DNA of 64,000 bases from a phage (GCA_032986305.1 GCA_032986305.1_3672.1); one strand, 5' to 3'. Positions 9,579-53,298 are shown, counted from the stretch's first letter. The notes: generated from the letters alone by a model not told the origin. Made by a program: numbers and translations.

Positions 9579-9857
9579 ATGAGCTGTGAAAAATCTTTTT
9601 TCTTTATTATTTACGGTAAAGATAACTGCCCACATTGTGTAAGAGCAAAAGAATTTGCAGTCAGTAAAGGTCTGCCTTTTGTATATAAGACACTTGGCGA
9701 GGGTTACACAAAAGAAGAGCTTATTGAGAAGTGCAGTCCAATCGTACCCAGAACGTTGCCGCAGATCTTCTTAGAAAGCAATCTTGAAAGTGCCCATATA
9801 GGCGGTGCCGACGATTTCATCTCTTTTGTTAAGAATGGTTTTGGAGAGAAAAAGTGA
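9579..9857 (+). CDS. glutaredoxin/NrdH-like redoxin
   Basis: 92 aa with CPHC active-site motif in thioredoxin-fold context, adjacent to RNR genes. Confidence 0.65.
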   Translation: MSCEKSFFFIIYGKDNCPHCVRAKEFAVSKGLPFVYKTLGEGYTKEELIEKCSPIVPRTLPQIFLESNLESAHIGGADDFISFVKNGFGEKK

Positions 9858-10714
9858 AAGTTGTAAAACGGGACGGTAGAGAAGAGGTCTATAACGGAAT
9901 TAAGGTGATCAAGGCGGCAGAGTCCGCCTTACTTGAGTCTGGACATACTGAAGAAGAAGCTTACCGGATCGCCTGCGCGGTTAATGAAGTTGTTGCTAAC
10001 AATCTACCAACCGACCAGTGCACGATCTCTGTAAAAAATATCCATATCCTTGTTGAAGACGCTCTTATGGATATGGGTTTAAAATGTGCAGCCAGAGAAT
10101 ACATCCAGTATAGGCAGACAAGAGATAATAACAGAGAGGCAGGTGGAAAACTGCTTGCAGATATTAGTGGCTTCTTGGATCGCACTTGTGATGAATTTAC
10201 AAAAGAAAACGCAAATAAGCCTACCAATCATGTACACACTCATCGTGACCTGCTTGCAGGCATCCTTAGCAAACACCTTGCATCAACACAGATCCTGCCA
10301 GACCGTGTCTCAGAAGAGCACAATAAAGGCTTCATCCATGTGCATGATCTTGACTACTTGATCAGTCCGTTAACAAACTGTTGTTTGGTAAATTATCCAG
10401 ATATGTTGGAAAACGGATTCAACATTGGTAACGCCCATGTCAGTAAGCCGAAGTCAATAGGGGTTGCAACAACAATCCTTAGCCAAATTTCTAGTGCAGT
10501 AGCTAGTGCTCAGTATGGGGGTCAGACTATGAGCCATATTGATCATTATCTGGCACAGTATGCTGAGGCGACCTATGAGAAGAATCTTAAATTTTGCCAG
10601 GAACACTGGTTGCCAGATGCTGAGACTGTTGCAATGCAAATGACAGATAAAGACGTATTTGACAGCATGCAGACTTTGCTCTATCAAATCAATACGTTAA
10701 CCTCTGTCAACGGT
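9854..10714 (+). CDS. nrdD: anaerobic ribonucleotide reductase NrdD, exon 1
   Basis: ATP-cone start MKVVKRDGREE..., conserved NCCLVNY; frame stops at TAA that begins intron-like sequence. Confidence 0.8.
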
Positions 10715-10962
10715 TAACAAACTGGCCGTTTTAAAACTCTGCTAACCTCAGTATGAGGGGTCAGCTGATCGCTGGCTAACGGGGAACGCTAAGGCGAAAG
10801 CTATGCCAATCCCGTGACTAGCTTCACAAGGAGTGAGGCGGTTGTAACGACTAACCTTTTGGTGTAGGGATTATGGAAGATTCCGAAACGCAGAGGTCTG
10901 ATTAAGAATCACACGGTGTGATTTCAGGCAAGAGATAGTCTGGCCTTGTGGAAACATAAGGG
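10715..10962 (+). mobile_element. group I intron 1 in nrdD (ORF-less; boundaries approximate)
   Basis: Contains CUAACGGGGAAC...CAAUCCCGUG core resembling P3-P7 of T4 td/nrdB/sunY-type introns; flanking frames are NrdD-like. Confidence 0.55.
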
Positions 10963-11271
10963 TGGGGACCGCAAACCCCTTTTATCACATTAAGTTTAGG
11001 TCTGGACACCTCAGTATTTGGTAGAATGATTACCAAAAACTACTTGAAAGTCCACAAAATGGGTCTTGGTGAAGAATGTATCACACCTGTGTTCCCTAAA
11101 GTGCTGTTCTTCCTAGAAGAGGGTGTCAACATGAACCCTGGAGATCCTAACTATGATTTGAAACGTTTAGCTCTGGAATGCTCTGCAGAGCGGATTTATC
11201 CTGACTTTGTTTCTGTTCCACTAAATCGTAAAGTGACAGGCTCGACAGATGGCAAAGTAACGAGCATGGGT
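10963..11271 (+). CDS. nrdD: NrdD exon 2 (inferred)
   Basis: In-frame segment (…GQTPFITL…ITPVFPKVLFFLEEG…YDLKRLALECSAERIYPD…) completing an approx 710-aa NrdD when joined to exons 1 and 3. Confidence 0.55.
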
Positions 11272-12033
11272 AAACTATAACTGCTCATGTAAAATCTATC
11301 TAAACGGGGAAACTCCAGAACGGACAATCCCGTGCTAAACGTAACAGAACTCCTGACCAAGAGGAGTCCTGAAATGAGAAAACAAATTCGTGATTTTGAA
11401 GGTTATGAAATTGACGAGATGGGCAATGTTTATTGCACCCGCTACGAAAATGAAAGAATTATTCATTCGTGGGAAGAGATAAACACAGGTTACCGTCTTG
11501 TTAGGATACGCAAGAACAAAAAGACTGTTTGCCTAAGGGTTCACAGACTTGTTGCTGAAGCGTTCTTACCAAATCCAGACAATTTACCCTATGTTAAGCA
11601 CAAAGGGGACAACAGGAAAGATAACAGTGTATACAACCTTGAGTGGGGAGCTTGCCCAGACAATACGCAAGAAGGATACAACAACAACTGTTATGCTTTT
11701 TACACAAGATGCCACGGTGTGAAAGCCACCAACAAATTAACTGGTGAGGTTTTCCACTTTAAAAGTCTGAGATGTTGTGCTGATGTTTTAGGAGTGGATA
11801 GAAAAAGAATATCTGCTATCCTGAAACGTGGTGCGCCTAATAACTATGATTACGAGTTCTGTTACGAAATGCCTAACGACTAACCGTGATGAATGTAGCG
11901 GTGTAGGGTGTAAGCCGATGACACTCGAAATGGTAGACACACTAAGTGTGAAGATATAGTCTGATCTGCATGGGAACATGCAGCAGCACGTAAAGGTGCG
12001 GGGGTGGACTTGCGAACCACCCTGAACATAATG
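11272..12033 (+). mobile_element. group I intron 2 in nrdD carrying HNH endonuclease ORF
   Basis: 5' part AAUCUAUCUAAACGGGG...CAAUCCCGUGCUAAA and 3' part GAUAUAGUCUGA...GCAUGG...CAUGCAG...AUAAUG strongly resemble T4 td-type group IA2 intron core. Confidence 0.65.
11374..11883 (+). CDS. intron-encoded HNH homing endonuclease
   Basis: HNH_3-type motifs GYRLVRIRK...VHRLVAEAF...HK.G...DN...NLEW; SD AAGAGGAG before ATG. Confidence 0.8.
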   Translation: MRKQIRDFEGYEIDEMGNVYCTRYENERIIHSWEEINTGYRLVRIRKNKKTVCLRVHRLVAEAFLPNPDNLPYVKHKGDNRKDNSVYNLEWGACPDNTQEGYNNNCYAFYTRCHGVKATNKLTGEVFHFKSLRCCADVLGVDRKRISAILKRGAPNNYDYEFCYEMPND

Positions 12034-12996
12034 TGTAGAAGTTTCTTATCGAAATATAGCGACCCTGTAACAGGCGAGGAGAAATACCTTGGCAGATTTA
12101 ACTTAGGCGTTGTTAGCCTTAACCTGCCAATGATTGCGGCAAAAGCCAAGACGGAAGGTGTTGATTTCTTTGCAGTTCTTGACGAATACTTGGATCTTGC
12201 ATACGAGGCTCACCTTGTAAGGGTTAATCGTCTAAAAGGAACAAAGGCAGGGCAGAACCCCATCATGTGGTGTGAAGGCGCTCTTGCTCGCCTGGATCCT
12301 GAAGAGAGTGTTGATAAACTCTTCTATGACGGGTACGCTTCCATCAGTATTGGGTATATTGGTGTGTATGAAACCTGTCAGATTTTGGGTAGAGAGGGTG
12401 ACAAGGCTTTAGCTCTTGGAATCCTTCAGCACATGAGAGATGCTTGTGAGCGATACAAGAAGGAAAGTAGACTAGCGTTTAGCTTGTACGGCACTCCTTC
12501 TGAGAGTCTATGCTATAAAGCTGCAACCTGTCTGGATCGTGAATATCCGGAAGTGTTGAAGCACGAGCATGAATATCTCACCAACAGTTTCCATCAGCCA
12601 GTATGGATAAATAGCTCTCCTTTTGATAAGTGGGAGTATGAGGAAGGTTTTGCTATGATCTCCTCTGGTGGCAACATCGGATACGTAGAAACACCTAACC
12701 TGAAAAACAACCTGGATGCTTTAGAGGCTCTTGTTGACTTCGGGTATAAACATATTATGTACTTCGGTATAAACCAGCCTGTTGACCAATGCTTCAAGTG
12801 CGGTTTCCAGGGAGAATTTAAAGCCTCTCCAAGAGGTTTTATATGCCCTTGTTGTGGAAACCATGAGGAGGGAACGATCAGTGTAATTAGACGTGTGTCT
12901 GGATACCTTTCCAGTCCTAACTCCCGTCCTTACAATAAAGGTAAGCAAGCGGAAGTTATAGAACGGGTTAAGCACTATGGAAGTTGTAGTTGCTGA
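12034..12996 (+). CDS. nrdD: NrdD exon 3 (glycyl radical domain)
   Basis: C-terminal zinc site CFKCG...CPCCG and glycyl-radical motif RRVSGYL. Confidence 0.8.
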   Translation, partial: CRSFLSKYSDPVTGEEKYLGRFNLGVVSLNLPMIAAKAKTEGVDFFAVLDEYLDLAYEAHLVRVNRLKGTKAGQNPIMWCEGALARLDPEESVDKLFYDGYASISIGYIGVYETCQILGREGDKALALGILQHMRDACERYKKESRLAFSLYGTPSESLCYKAATCLDREYPEVLKHEHEYLTNSFHQPVWINSSPFDKWEYEEGFAMISSGGNIGYVETPNLKNNLDALEALVDFGYKHIMYFGINQPVDQCFKCGFQGEFKASPRGFICPCCGNHEEGTISVIRRVSGYLSSPNSRPYNKGKQAEVIERVKHYGSCSC

Positions 12997-13062
12997 TACT
13001 TGACAGAAGCCACAAGGATGTGGCATACTTGGCTAATCTATGAGAACCAAGAGGGATCAAAG

Positions 13063-14019
13063 ATGCCTAGAGGAAAACAACTTACAACTGAAGAATTTAC
13101 AAAAAGAGCTAGAGAAGTACATGGCGATAAATATGACTATTCAAAAACCGTATATAAAACTGCTAAAAGTAAGGTTGTAATTGTATGCCCTGTTCATGGT
13201 GAGTTTACGCAGATCGCTGGACATCATATCCTTGACGGTAGTGGGTGTCCTAAGTGTGGTAGAGTGCCAGTAGGCAATAAGCTTAGAAACGATTCTAGTG
13301 ATATTATCAAAAAATTTGTAAAAATCCACGGTGACACCTATGATTATTCTAAGGTTGAATATGTTAACTATAAAACTCCTGTAAAAATTGTATGCCCTGA
13401 GCACGGAGTGTTCTTGCAATCCCCATCTAACCATTTGAAAGGCCAAGGGTGCCCTGAGTGTAGTAAACTCATTAGCGCAGCAAAAAGGAATAAAGGCCCT
13501 GAATTCATAGAAAGAGCCAAAGAAATCCATGGCGATAAATATGACTACTCTTTTGTAGATTATATGACTTGCGAAGATAAGGTAGAGATAATCTGCAACA
13601 CTTGTGGAAATCACTTCACCCAGACACCTTCTTGCCACCTGTCTGGTCGTGGATGCCCTAAATGTGCCAAAAACGGTTTCTTATCTCACAACTATGGGAA
13701 GCTTTACCTCATGGTTGATAACTTAGAAGCGCCAACACTTATGAAGATTGGTGTGAGCGTCAATGTAGAAGCGAGGAAGGGAAGGATATTAAGAGCATCC
13801 AAGAAGGCTGGTGCAGGTATTTATGATCTCCACATAGTAAAAACATGGGGCGGATCGACTGAAAACATGCTGAGTGTAGAAAAATCTGTGCATGAAGCCT
13901 TCAATAAGTATAAAATAAACTTCTCTAAAGTATTTAGTGGAAGCACTGAATTCTTTCACTACAGACCTGAAGTGTTTAGCATAGTGGAAGCAGTATACAA
14001 AGAGATCTGTGGTAAATGA
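13063..14019 (+). CDS. free-standing homing-endonuclease-like protein (Zn-ribbon repeats plus T5orf172/GIY-YIG-like C-terminal domain)
   Basis: Three repeats of HGDKYDYS...CP.HG.F......H..G.GCP.C, C-terminal KLYLMVD...MKIGVS....R motif. Confidence 0.55.
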   Translation: MPRGKQLTTEEFTKRAREVHGDKYDYSKTVYKTAKSKVVIVCPVHGEFTQIAGHHILDGSGCPKCGRVPVGNKLRNDSSDIIKKFVKIHGDTYDYSKVEYVNYKTPVKIVCPEHGVFLQSPSNHLKGQGCPECSKLISAAKRNKGPEFIERAKEIHGDKYDYSFVDYMTCEDKVEIICNTCGNHFTQTPSCHLSGRGCPKCAKNGFLSHNYGKLYLMVDNLEAPTLMKIGVSVNVEARKGRILRASKKAGAGIYDLHIVKTWGGSTENMLSVEKSVHEAFNKYKINFSKVFSGSTEFFHYRPEVFSIVEAVYKEICGK

Positions 14020-14071: not shown

Positions 14072-14188
14072 ATGTCATCGGGTATCTATAAAATCTGCAA
14101 GTGCGGTTGTCATTGTAATCTTCGTTGGTGCAAGGCACTGGACGATTTTATTTGGCATTGCCCTAAATGTGATGCGGAGTATCTATGA
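14072..14188 (+). CDS. small zinc-ribbon protein (38 aa)
   Basis: SD AAGGAGGTG before ATG; CKCGCHC...CPKC; stop overlaps nrdG start (ATGA). Confidence 0.4.
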   Translation: MSSGIYKICKCGCHCNLRWCKALDDFIWHCPKCDAEYL

Positions 14189-14658
14189 ATATTGCCGGAT
14201 ACACAGAAATATCTTACACCGAAGGGCCAGGTATTAGAACTGCCTTATGGGTATCTGGGTGCCCACACGCTTGCCCTGGTTGCTTTAATCAGGCATTTTG
14301 GTCAAAAGATAAGGGGAGAGAGTTTACTGAAGAAGACTTGCAAAAAATCTTGTCAGATTTAGATAACCCGTCTGTGTGCGGTATCTCTCTGCTGGGTGGA
14401 GAACCCTTAGCATACTATAATGAGCCAGATATTATTAGCCTGATGGAGAAAATTAAGGAAAAATTTGGTGACAAGAAAACTATTCTTGTATATACTGGGT
14501 TCACATTTGACCATATCTCTAGTGATGTTCTTAAACTGGCTGATATCATCATTGACGGTAAGTATGTAAAAGATTTACCAACCAAGAAACCGTTCCGAGG
14601 TAGTGATAACCAAAGAATGTTTAAAAAAGTATCAGGCGGTTGGGTTCAGGTAGACTAG
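14185..14658 (+). CDS. nrdG: anaerobic ribonucleotide reductase activating protein NrdG (radical SAM)
   Basis: Radical-SAM cluster motif CPHACPGC near N-terminus, approx 157 aa. Confidence 0.85.
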   Translation: MNIAGYTEISYTEGPGIRTALWVSGCPHACPGCFNQAFWSKDKGREFTEEDLQKILSDLDNPSVCGISLLGGEPLAYYNEPDIISLMEKIKEKFGDKKTILVYTGFTFDHISSDVLKLADIIIDGKYVKDLPTKKPFRGSDNQRMFKKVSGGWVQVD

Positions 14659-50601: not shown

Positions 50602-50868
50602 TAGTTCAGGTAGGTCGTTAAGCTACCCCGCACCATTACGTGCATAGCCATACGTTTTCACGTAGGATCGGACCATCTCATATTCCTATGATAAGCAACC
50701 ACAGGAATCCTCCCATTTCGACCGCACTTGCTGGTCTACTTCCTTTCGGAATGGCCTCTGAGCGTTCGCTCTTTTGAGCGCTTCGTTGCGGATTACCTTG
50801 CCATAAGGTTTAGGCTTCCCGCAGTTAAAGAGGTTATTCGACATAGATTACTCTATGAAGCCACAATG

Positions 50869-53298
50869 TTATTTATGGTAATAAATAATACGACGAACAC
50901 CTTCATCGTACCACCCACGCTTCACCATTTGGTGGTGCATGAGTATCCCAACTAAGTCACACAGCGATGCACCACCATTCTGTTGGTATGCATTAAGTAA
51001 AGAGTGTTTAGATCGGGTCCAGATGGCATGACCATCAAAAGAGTAGATAAACTTCTTACCCGTTGCTTCCCAGAATTTCTCCAGATCCTCTTTACGCCCC
51101 TTAAGACCAGGGTTGGCATCCCAAAGTGCATCGATTACCCTTTGTCCCAACTCTGGAGAGATGTCCAGCATATCTGCAACTTTATCTTTTTGTGCCCCGT
51201 ACATAACCCCATACGTGATAGGTTTACCGTCGTTACGGGACACCTCTCTGCCTGCTACTTTTGTATATGCCTCAGCATTGTTTTGGTGTGCGTCTCCGTT
51301 ACTTACAACATCGTAATACAGGCCGTTGTCGAACTCAAAGGCACCCCAAGCCCCGATAAGCTGCTCTAAGTTGGACCCGTCGATACCGATCTCAAAGTAT
51401 CCTGGAGGAACACCCCACAAGCTACGCATCTCTTTACCCATAACCACTTTAGGAGAGGGTTTAGGCATGTTTGCACAAATACTGTGTTTCTGTCTGGAAG
51501 TGTTTGTTAATCCAGAGCTTTTAGCAGGAAGCTTATGGTCAATCTTCAAGCGTGGGTGATTAAGAAGACCAGTATCAACCTTATCCTCCTTGATCGGATC
51601 AAGGACCGATCTGCGGTTTCGCAATGATAACCACAAGACGATATCTTTAGCCATCTCTCCGTTCAATTTTTCAAGATTCGGACATAGGTGTCCAAACGTA
51701 TCTTTCAGTTGCGGAGAAGTAATAAGTGCCCTAGCTTTTCTACGTATTTTCCTGAATACTTCCTTTTTAATCCTTTCGGAGTTAGGAAAGCTTCGGAACT
51801 TGTGCACAGTTGTCTGGAACTTAGCATCAGTTTTGTTCCAGAAGTTGATAATTAGGTCACAATACTCTGACTCCAAAAGCTCGTCCATATATGCATATAC
51901 TCGTGCATCAACATCTGCATCAGGTAAAGCTTTCTTCTTGCTGTCTTTAGTTACATCCTTAGTTCTCCACATTGTCGGAAGCCAGCCAGCACTGATCAGG
52001 TATCGCTTAATGTCGTCCTGGTTGCTGATTTTCATAGGTATCTTGCAGTCCGGCATTCGCTTCTGCTGTAGATCACTTATTGCCTGATCCATCAACTCTT
52101 TAGGTAAAGGGTGTGGTGTGGAAGTGCCCTTAATATAGCCTCTCAAGAAATCAGCCATCTTATCGGGGTCTTTGCATCCCATCTCTTCACACCATTTTAT
52201 CCCCATCTTGCTGACATCTCCTGTAGAGGTAAATGCTCTCTTAGGCGGGGCTTTGAACTCTAAAGCGCTCATGTCTACAGGATATCCAAGCTTATCTTTT
52301 AACCATTTCCAACCATTATTAGAGATTGTCCCGTCTTGGTTAAACGGCTTTTCAGGGAACTTGGGCCGCTGAGACATTGACAGCTCTTTTAAAGGCAGTT
52401 GTGGTTCAACACGATCAGCGATTTCTTTCATCCACGCATCGCAACGGTCACGTAAAGCAATAGCTCCATCTATGTCGAAATATACGCCCTGACGGGCCTG
52501 CAGCTCCATCAGGAAGTGCTGCAGCATACCTCGGCGCAATGCGTTCTTCCAGGTGATCTTCTTGAACCCTTTTGGCTTCTCTTTGGCAGGATCGTACATA
52601 AAGTTCTGCATGTCAGATTTGCCGTAGAATACACCTTTTGATTCCGCTACCAGCTCTTTCCAGAGCAACTCCTGGATGATAACGTCCTCGAATACACGAT
52701 CCACATACTTCCACAACGGAAGATCGCGCCAGTCATCAATTTGAACTTTCTGGTTACCAAGGGCGTAGCCCCATGCCATAAGGCCGTGAGGACCAACAGG
52801 CTGCATTTTCTTAGTAACCGGGTTGAATACAGCGTCCGGACAACCTTTTGGTAAAGGGCGATCAGGCCACAAGATTCGGCTCATCGCCAACGTATCAAAC
52901 AGGTTAACCTGGTGGTCGTTGATAGTCCCCATACATTTAGGATCACGGAACATATCAAAATGAATACCGGATAATCTCTCCATCAGCATAAAGTCATAAC
53001 TATAGCAGTTATGGCAGTTCAAAGCTGTTGGTGACCAGTCGGAATTGCCTGTAAGCCAACCTTCCAACTCCGAAAAATCTGCTATGCGAACTTCAAAATC
53101 TTTATAAAGAGCTTTCTTTGCCAGAATAAAGTTCTTAGCCTTCTCTATATCCTCCTCGGAGTAGTGTGTGCGGTCATTTAGAGGGAGGAACAGCATAAAA
53201 CGGTTCTTATTCAGCTCTTTAAACAGGCCGCAGTGATAATAAAGATCTGGGTCTTCCAAAAGCCCGGAGGCCTCAAAATCGAAGCTATACATGCTCAT
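50869..53298 (-). CDS. family A DNA polymerase (T7 gp5-like) with 3'-5' exonuclease domain
   Basis: Exo I FDFEASGL; motif A GIDGSNLEQL (cf. T7 DASGLELR); motif B RNDGKPITYGVMYG; SD AAGGAG. Confidence 0.75.
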   Translation of the reverse strand: MSMYSFDFEASGLLEDPDLYYHCGLFKELNKNRFMLFLPLNDRTHYSEEDIEKAKNFILAKKALYKDFEVRIADFSELEGWLTGNSDWSPTALNCHNCYSYDFMLMERLSGIHFDMFRDPKCMGTINDHQVNLFDTLAMSRILWPDRPLPKGCPDAVFNPVTKKMQPVGPHGLMAWGYALGNQKVQIDDWRDLPLWKYVDRVFEDVIIQELLWKELVAESKGVFYGKSDMQNFMYDPAKEKPKGFKKITWKNALRRGMLQHFLMELQARQGVYFDIDGAIALRDRCDAWMKEIADRVEPQLPLKELSMSQRPKFPEKPFNQDGTISNNGWKWLKDKLGYPVDMSALEFKAPPKRAFTSTGDVSKMGIKWCEEMGCKDPDKMADFLRGYIKGTSTPHPLPKELMDQAISDLQQKRMPDCKIPMKISNQDDIKRYLISAGWLPTMWRTKDVTKDSKKKALPDADVDARVYAYMDELLESEYCDLIINFWNKTDAKFQTTVHKFRSFPNSERIKKEVFRKIRRKARALITSPQLKDTFGHLCPNLEKLNGEMAKDIVLWLSLRNRRSVLDPIKEDKVDTGLLNHPRLKIDHKLPAKSSGLTNTSRQKHSICANMPKPSPKVVMGKEMRSLWGVPPGYFEIGIDGSNLEQLIGAWGAFEFDNGLYYDVVSNGDAHQNNAEAYTKVAGREVSRNDGKPITYGVMYGAQKDKVADMLDISPELGQRVIDALWDANPGLKGRKEDLEKFWEATGKKFIYSFDGHAIWTRSKHSLLNAYQQNGGASLCDLVGILMHHQMVKRGWYDEGVRRIIYYHK

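Follow-up and report, generated by a model that had tools for sequence, protein, structure and literature searches.

In a 64,000-nucleotide (nt) stretch of phage DNA (GCA_032986305.1; hereafter the window), which derives from a Vequintavirus (rV5-like) myovirus of Escherichia coli, the class III anaerobic reductase gene nrdD is very probably interrupted by two group I introns whose removal would yield a single 707-amino-acid (aa) NrdD, the second intron being probably mobile by means of its own HNH endonuclease. That nrdD lies in three exons split by two group I introns had been proposed in an original prediction from the DNA alone, and this is supported by intron-less alleles, a U-G pair in P1, terminal G residues, Rfam matches and covariation. 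Escherichia phage 241Ecol014PP matches the whole of the 3.1-kb nrdD region (95.6%), and the match to phage navn covers 94% of it (98%).

Exon boundaries and the NrdD product

The three translated segments correspond to successive parts of the Pfam NRDD profile (positions 1–154, 153–263 and 264–562 of 562). The first carries a complete ATP-cone (1–87 of 88, 1.7e-14) together with the N-terminal NRDD part; the third contains, in addition to NRDD 264–562, a Gly_radical domain (6.8e-23), a Cys4 zinc site (CFKC...CPCC) and the glycyl-radical motif RRVSGYL, and both of the latter align to T4 NrdD. The ATP-cone, zinc site and RVSGYL motif described originally are thus all present, and the middle segment, then placed at 10963–11271, does have the NrdD homology ascribed to it (NRDD 153–263). 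Given the profile order, the ATP-cone and Gly_radical domains and the in-frame stops, the three-segment pattern is real and far beyond chance.

Joining 861, 300 and 963 nt gives a coding sequence (CDS) for a 707-aa protein that aligns to T4 NrdD without gaps at both junctions (E 1.3e-166), and a second solved NrdD (PDB 9d3x) likewise aligns gap-free at both. The junction residues are SVNG/QTPF for exons 1 and 2 and TSMG/CRSF for exons 2 and 3. Counted along the T4 NrdD alignment, the opening codon of exon 3 is the equivalent of T4 Cys290, which, from the T4 NrdD structure, we take to be the active-site radical cysteine; intron 2 is therefore inserted directly before the catalytic Cys codon. 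The features of a class III anaerobic reductase (NRDD, the RVxGY glycyl-radical domain, Cys4 and the active-site Cys) are complete only with both introns removed.

The boundaries are fixed by relatives in which one or both inserts are missing. Phage phiWec191 lacks exactly 10715–10971 (257 nt), an absence that recurs exactly in Murica and rV5_ev156, and 11272–12033 (762 nt) is exactly absent from AlexBoehm, WalterGehring, Murica and rV5_ev156; the exact absence of each insert leaves an intact nrdD reading frame. The limits given previously for intron 2 (11272–12033) are confirmed to the nucleotide, and the exon coordinates 9854–10714, 11271 and 12034–12996 also stand. The start of exon 2 has to be moved 9 nt, from 10963 to 10972, because the 257 nt missing from phiWec191 place the 3′ splice site after G10971. 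Consequently, the single product foreseen at approximately 710 aa stands with a revised size of 707 aa; the earlier start would add W-G-P, residues that T4 NrdD lacks. A U precedes both 5′ splice sites, and the terminal intron bases are G10971 and G12033. As anticipated, the first codon of intron 1 is a stop (TAA, 10715–10717, directly after exon 1), and the exon 2 frame continues AAA CUA UAA, with UAA at 11278.

Existing annotation agrees in part. Records of phi92 and ECGD1 already contain an nrdD CDS spliced across the site of the intron 2 family, and BASEL collection records (AlexBoehm, WalterGehring) join the CDS across intron 1, with boundaries that the authors fixed by comparative genomics (PMC8594841). 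In all seven records that carry both introns, nrdD is entered as three separate CDSs. Several database records begin nrdD at an internal ATG (window position 10067) and so lose the ATP-cone, which is whole when the GTG at 9854, overlapping the glutaredoxin stop codon, is used.

Group I folds of the two introns

Both inserts contain the group IA core motifs previously quoted for them, and both matched the Rfam group I model RF00028 in a permissive covariance search of the kind originally suggested, but under its gathering threshold of 50 bits, an operational cut-off and not a biological criterion; a scan of the whole window at that threshold found neither nrdD intron. Intron 1 scored 29.2 bits (E 4.6e-5). 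For intron 2 only the 3′ half was matched (35.3 bits, E 6.7e-7), because a 510-nt open reading frame (ORF) sits in P6; its ORF-less homologue in phi92 reached 70.6 bits, over the threshold, and the T4 nrdD intron 105.3 bits. The alignment to the model is broken by this ORF and, in intron 1, by a 35-nt insert ahead of P4.

For intron 2, a P1–P10 structure including the P7 pseudoknot was written onto an alignment of eight sequences: the window copy (ORF loop removed), HMD-6, phi92, ECGD1, two Vibrio phage copies, T4 and F2. Standard pairs fill 97.9% of cells, and 28 of the 80 pairs show compensatory changes on both sides; none of 500 shuffles did as well, and partners slid out of register pair at only 30–43%. 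Compensation extends to P7.1 (3/4 pairs) and P7.2 (4/6), and the U-G pair of P1 is invariant in all eight. In Vibrio phage F89, P10 is formed by a different 8-base-pair (bp) pairing, GAUUGGCA with exon UGCCGAUC, and thus covaries with the exon. The expected P1–P10 folding is therefore backed by covariation in intron 2, and in intron 1 the core is shared by two sequence variants.

The minimum-energy fold of intron 1 has z = −3.9, with none of 200 shuffles equally stable, and without constraints it yields P1, P3, P4, P5, P6, P7.1, P7.2, P8 and P9; P7 (GACUA/UAGUC) lies outside this fold and was placed by inspection. A diverged variant (phita32 type, 28 records) is 86.7% identical over its alignable 5′ 141 nt and carries in P8 a 177-aa HNH ORF, distinct from that of intron 2; once this ORF is taken out, the variant folds independently to the same architecture. 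Its P3 differs by a compensatory change (CUCUGC/GCAGAG to CUCUCC/GGAGAG), as do P9 (U-A to C-G) and one (hairpin B) of a pair of additional hairpins that separate P3 from P4, while P7.2 has a wholly different sequence with its pairing kept. As the MAFFT alignment of the two variants is out of register from P7.1 to P8, the comparison uses the independent folds. The extra hairpins (10746–10777) are present in both variants and flanked by the direct repeat CUAAC. In group I introns J3/4 is usually 3 nt; intron 1 may hold a real two-hairpin insertion at this position. An alternative P3 suggested by the Rfam alignment, adjoining P4, was rejected for want of pairing. The sole distant BLAST match of intron 1, in Bacillus phage S4-2, belongs to another group I intron, in which P1-P2-P3-P4 follow one another in the usual way, and is of no help with the insert, and a degenerate P4–P5 core pattern run against viral contigs retrieved one further Vequintavirus contig only, adding no diversity. 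A 4-bp hairpin, GGGG(ACCG/CAAA)CCCC (10964–10979), spans the 3′ splice site; its phita32 equivalent is GGAG...CUCC, a covarying change that is synonymous on the exon side.

The putative intron 2 endonuclease, intron distribution and probable mobility

The ORF in P6 encodes a 169-aa protein of the HNH type predicted for the second intron. It matches phrog_59 HNH endonucleases (2.8e-32) and phrog_959 (2e-25), and aligns end to end (E 1.8e-7; residues 3–166 with 4–172) with I-HmuI (PDB 1u3e), the HNH nicking endonuclease of the SPO1 DNA polymerase intron, which is intron-encoded as well. The two proteins share the His and Asn residues of the HNH motif, and His76, Asn88 and Asn97 are invariant in a seven-sequence alignment that includes I-HmuI. 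Part of the likeness is a C-terminal NUMOD-like DNA-binding region, a match that is itself sub-threshold. However, identity to I-HmuI is only ~25%, and the Asp preceding the catalytic His is replaced by Lys. The ORF overlaps the ribozyme: its final codons supply the 3′ side of P6a, then J6/7 and the 5′ side of P7, with the stop UAA within GACUAA. Ahead of its AUG, an inverted repeat buries the ribosome-binding site (RBS); VEcB-type relatives of phi92 share the ORF at 91% aa identity, and in VEcB this hairpin reads ACUCCC/GGGGGU and so covaries (the VEcB copy compared is 1801–2570 of the VEcB stretch). DNA identity to VEcB is only about 85%, and the excess of protein identity suggests purifying selection on the ORF.

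The distribution of the introns was surveyed in about 120 Vequintavirus database records spanning the nrdD stretch. Intron 1 is found in 42, of which 14 are ORF-less, with 99% or more identity to the window, and 28 carry an ORF; 18 have an ORF-bearing intron 2, at 96.8–100% identity, which is also present in phi92-like phages at ~85% identity. Both introns are present in 7 records, 4 of which (navn, A147, A135 and 241Ecol014PP) have the exact configuration of the window, and about 66 records have neither. Over the 40 nt of exon 3 immediately following intron 2, alleles lacking the intron differ from the window at 11 positions and alleles bearing it at none; beyond this tract intron 2-less alleles differ at 0–2 positions per 40 nt, and no such tract exists on the 5′ flank. 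A short exon tract linked to the intron on one side is indirect evidence of homing with co-conversion and is the expected trace of an endonuclease-initiated event.

From these features we infer the splicing chemistry, the endonuclease activity and its target, and homing. One nrdD pre-mRNA would be transcribed, from which two group I ribozymes would excise themselves: the guide sequence of each would pair with the last 6–8 exon bases as P1, placing a U-G wobble where the RNA is cut; attack by exogenous guanosine after U10714 or U11271 would be followed by docking of the terminal G (10971 or 12033), allowing exon ligation. Exons 9854–10714, 10972–11271 and 12034–12996 would thereby be joined into 707 NrdD codons, and the in-frame UAA codons at 10715 and 11278 would stop ribosomes ahead of each ribozyme. 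In a mixed infection the I-HmuI-like enzyme would presumably nick or cut intron-less nrdD near the Gly and Cys290 codons, and the recipient would acquire intron 2 during repair, along with some 40 nt of the exon that follows it.

Several observations weigh against this account. Both window copies score under the Rfam gathering threshold (29.2 and 35.3 against 50 bits), intron 1 has an atypical 35-nt insert, made up of two hairpins, separating P3 from P4, and covariation in this intron comes from two sequence variants only. For the endonuclease, Pfam HNH_3 gives 19.7 bits where the cut-off is 24.8, and the position of the I-HmuI Asp is occupied by Lys, so that, judged from its sequence, the enzyme may be weak or inactive. 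The 96.8–100% identity of the 18 Vequintavirus copies of intron 2 points to recent spread, and their conservation accordingly says little about selection. Some of these points would suit a reading in which one or both inserts are decayed, non-splicing introns and nrdD is a pseudogene or encodes separate polypeptides that assemble after translation, as reportedly happens with the split nrdA gene in Aeromonas phage Aeh1. The sub-threshold scores, the unusual intron 1 insert and the three CDSs annotated in all seven two-intron records are compatible with it, and the related phage CB7 is reported to have an HNH insertion that does not splice (PMC7344957). We nonetheless regard decay as improbable: exon 2 has no initial start codon, its earliest in-frame ATG lying 18 codons in (11026); all core helices pair and are kept by compensatory changes; the exons are intact, with mostly synonymous differences from intron-less alleles; and junction 2 abuts the catalytic Cys codon, so that separate fragments would split the active-site loop.

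Somewhat less improbable, yet still unlikely, is that the introns splice while intron 2 moves by ordinary recombination or through another endonuclease acting in trans, candidates being a free-standing endonuclease encoded at 13063–14019 and the intron 1 HNH enzyme of co-infecting phages. Spread of this kind would accord with the loss of the metal-ligand Asp, with the position of the free-standing gene only 70 nt downstream of nrdD and with the persistence and spread of ORF-less copies of both introns; T4 is said to offer a precedent, mobE driving trans-homing of the defunct I-TevIII intron. The HNH ORF is nevertheless intact with all three invariant residues kept, its protein-level conservation relative to VEcB suggests purifying selection, the RBS hairpin is held by covariation, and the linked exon tract begins exactly at the insertion site, all of which argue for mobility driven by the intron's own enzyme. 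That the inserts are inteins, group II introns or other insertion elements is hardly credible: nothing was found in its favour, inteins are ruled out by in-frame stops at or just inside both 5′ ends, group I core elements and RF00028 matches are present, and Rfam scans gave no reverse transcriptase or group II signature. Programmed frameshifting or bypassing was likewise ruled out, the inserts being far too long and folding as ribozymes.

Copies outside the Vequintavirus set bear on the history of intron 2. The ORF-less copy in ECGD1 (201–490 of the stretch examined) retains ~30 nt from the end of the HNH ORF (TATGATTATGAGTTCTGTTACGAAATG); copies without the ORF are therefore products of deletions inside the endonuclease gene. 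In the marine Vibrio phages F89 (g2, 1376–2128) and 1.084.O (~893–1700), members of the family occupy the same nrdD Gly/Cys site with a related HNH ORF (52% aa identity), so that phage groups distant from one another use this insertion site.

Related introns and the surrounding genome

The locus is a clear and well-resolved but ordinary case of a well-known phage phenomenon, and it is partly annotated already. Group I introns in phage reductase genes have been reported from T4 nrdD and nrdB, Twort nrdE (two introns), SPbeta and A9 (PMC3653736). Staphylococcus phage Twort offers the closest parallel in layout, a reductase gene twice interrupted near conserved catalytic residues, with one HNH-encoding intron (PMC3653736); its nrdE is, however, a class Ib gene from another host lineage, and splicing was demonstrated there experimentally. 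The rV5 genome paper reports introns in the terminase gene only (PMC3606486), and literature searches found no published description of nrdD introns in Vequintavirus. Among individual phages, the nrdD intron of phi92 and ECGD1 (Justusliebigvirus; the 'spliced variant' gp192A) shares with intron 2 the insertion site, the first exon 3 bases UGUAGAAGUUUCUU and an 89% identical core, whereas the introns there are ORF-less, nrdD is only ~66% identical to that of the window and intron 1 is missing. AlexBoehm carries an intron 1 that is 99% identical but no intron 2; WalterGehring-type phages also lack intron 2, and their intron 1 copies contain the 177-aa HNH ORF in P8 that the window copy does not have.

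The T4 nrdD (sunY) intron, an IA2 intron encoding I-TevII, resembles intron 2 in its host gene, its guide GCUCAUG, its 3′ end CUGAACA-AUG and its P7.1/P7.2 layout. From the 5′ end to P9, the core of intron 2 is 70% identical to T4 and 77% identical to the T-even phage F2, compared with 75% between T4 and F2, and the 5′ and 3′ terminal segments are shared by all three. The locations differ: the T4 intron interrupts codon Y180, 10 codons before the point where intron 1 is inserted, whereas intron 2 lies between G289 and C290 (T4 numbering), ~110 codons downstream. The T4 GIY-YIG endonuclease is encoded downstream of the core, after P9, and the HNH enzyme of the window within P6. The shared guide pairs equally well with the 5′ exon hexamers AUGAGU (T4 site) and AUGGGU (intron 2 site). 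One sequence family at two sites with a common guide suggests a change of site within nrdD, and we tentatively raise the possibility, itself doubtful, that a sunY-type lineage moved between Y180 and Cys290, possibly by guide-directed reverse splicing; each sub-lineage might then, with equal uncertainty, have gained a different endonuclease, GIY-YIG after the core or HNH in P6. Were this so, the two sites together would preserve a natural case of group I intron transposition through reverse splicing, a process that is much discussed but seldom documented in phages.

Understanding of how group I introns work is unchanged by the nrdD case, and its value is of other kinds. In the window and in at least seven database relatives, nrdD is annotated as three genes or from an internal ATG, when the correct product would be one 707-aa ATP-cone enzyme. 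With all four combinations of intron presence and absence, and with ORF-bearing and ORF-less forms of both introns, the locus amounts to a small natural experiment on how introns move; its one-sided 40-nt tract makes it suited to the study of nick-induced homing by I-HmuI-like enzymes, and two nrdD sites served by one guide sequence are suited to asking how group I introns reach new sites.

Table 1. Exons, introns, structural elements and neighbouring genes at the nrdD locus (window coordinates).
Feature	Coordinates	Strand	Details
nrdD exon 1	9854–10714	+	287 codons; ends U10714; from ORF list, Pfam and boundary in intron-less phiWec191
nrdD exon 2	10972–11271	+	100 codons; ends U11271; from ORF list, Pfam and T4 NrdD alignment
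nrdD exon 3	12034–12996	+	320 codons + stop; from Pfam and alignment to T4 NrdD (1h78)
Intron 1, group I, no ORF	10715–10971	+	257 nt; in-frame UAA first, G10971 last
Intron 1 P1	10709–10730	+	exon AACGGU (10709–10714) with guide GCCGUU (10725–10730); all pair, U-G at splice site
Intron 1 P3	10737–10895	+	CUCUGC (10737–10742) with GCAGAG (10890–10895)
Elements enclosed by intron 1 P3	hairpins 10746–10758, 10759–10777; P4 10779–10784/10810–10815; P6 10821–10839	+	also P5, P7.1, P7.2
Intron 1 P7.1, P7.2	10854–10863, 10867–10884	+	subgroup IA-type extension
Intron 1 P7 pseudoknot	10849–10853 with 10936–10940	+	GACUA with UAGUC
Intron 1 P8, P9	10897–10928, 10944–10961	+	
Intron 2, IA2 group I, T4 nrdD (sunY) family	11272–12033	+	762 nt; terminal G12033
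Intron 2 P1	11264–11290	+	exon GCAUGGGU (11264–11271) with guide GCUCAUGU (11283–11290); all positions pair
Intron 2 P10	11275–11279 with 12034–12038	+	CUAUA with first five exon 3 bases UGUAG
Intron 2 P6a	11340–11866	+	perfect 13-bp stem, CGUAACAGAACUC (11340–11352) with GAGUUCUGUUACG (11854–11866); closes endonuclease ORF loop
RBS hairpin	11345–11371	+	inverted repeat ACUCCU/AGGAGU; buries AGGAG (11362–11366); ends 2 nt before AUG
HNH homing endonuclease gene, I-HmuI-like	11374–11883	+	169 aa; in P6 loop
Intron 2 3′ core	11878–12022	+	P7 GACUA (11878–11882) with UAGUC (11957–11961); P7.1; P7.2; P3′ 11932–11937; P8; P9 11966–11983; P9.1; P9.2
Exon tract linked to intron 2	12034–12073	+	11/40 differences in intron 2-less alleles, 0/40 in intron 2 alleles
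Free-standing endonuclease gene	13063–14019	+	phrog_681 (1.3e-67); T5orf172/MUG113 domain and repeated DUF723/zinc-ribbon modules
nrdG, NrdD activase	14185–14658	+	ORF with CPHACPGC; equivalent position annotated activase in relatives including 241Ecol014PP

The genes around the locus run nrdB, glutaredoxin (9579–9857), nrdD (9854–12996), the free-standing endonuclease and nrdG, so that the endonuclease gene separates nrdD from the gene for its activase (Table 1). A sigma-70-like site (13000–13029) stands ahead of the endonuclease gene, which is absent from this position between nrdD and nrdG in 241Ecol014PP and AlexBoehm.

A third group I intron, on the minus strand at 50649–50884, scores 64.7 bits and is alone in the window in passing the Rfam threshold. 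It lies within a family-A DNA polymerase gene (809-aa ORF, 50869–53298, minus strand), whose 3′ part it interrupts, and among Vequintavirus records it is ORF-less, equipped with an HNH ORF or absent. GenBank records of the MG0656xx series labelled 'Campylobacter phage' are 98–100% identical to E. coli Vequintavirus in the nrdD and polymerase region, which makes their host label look doubtful.

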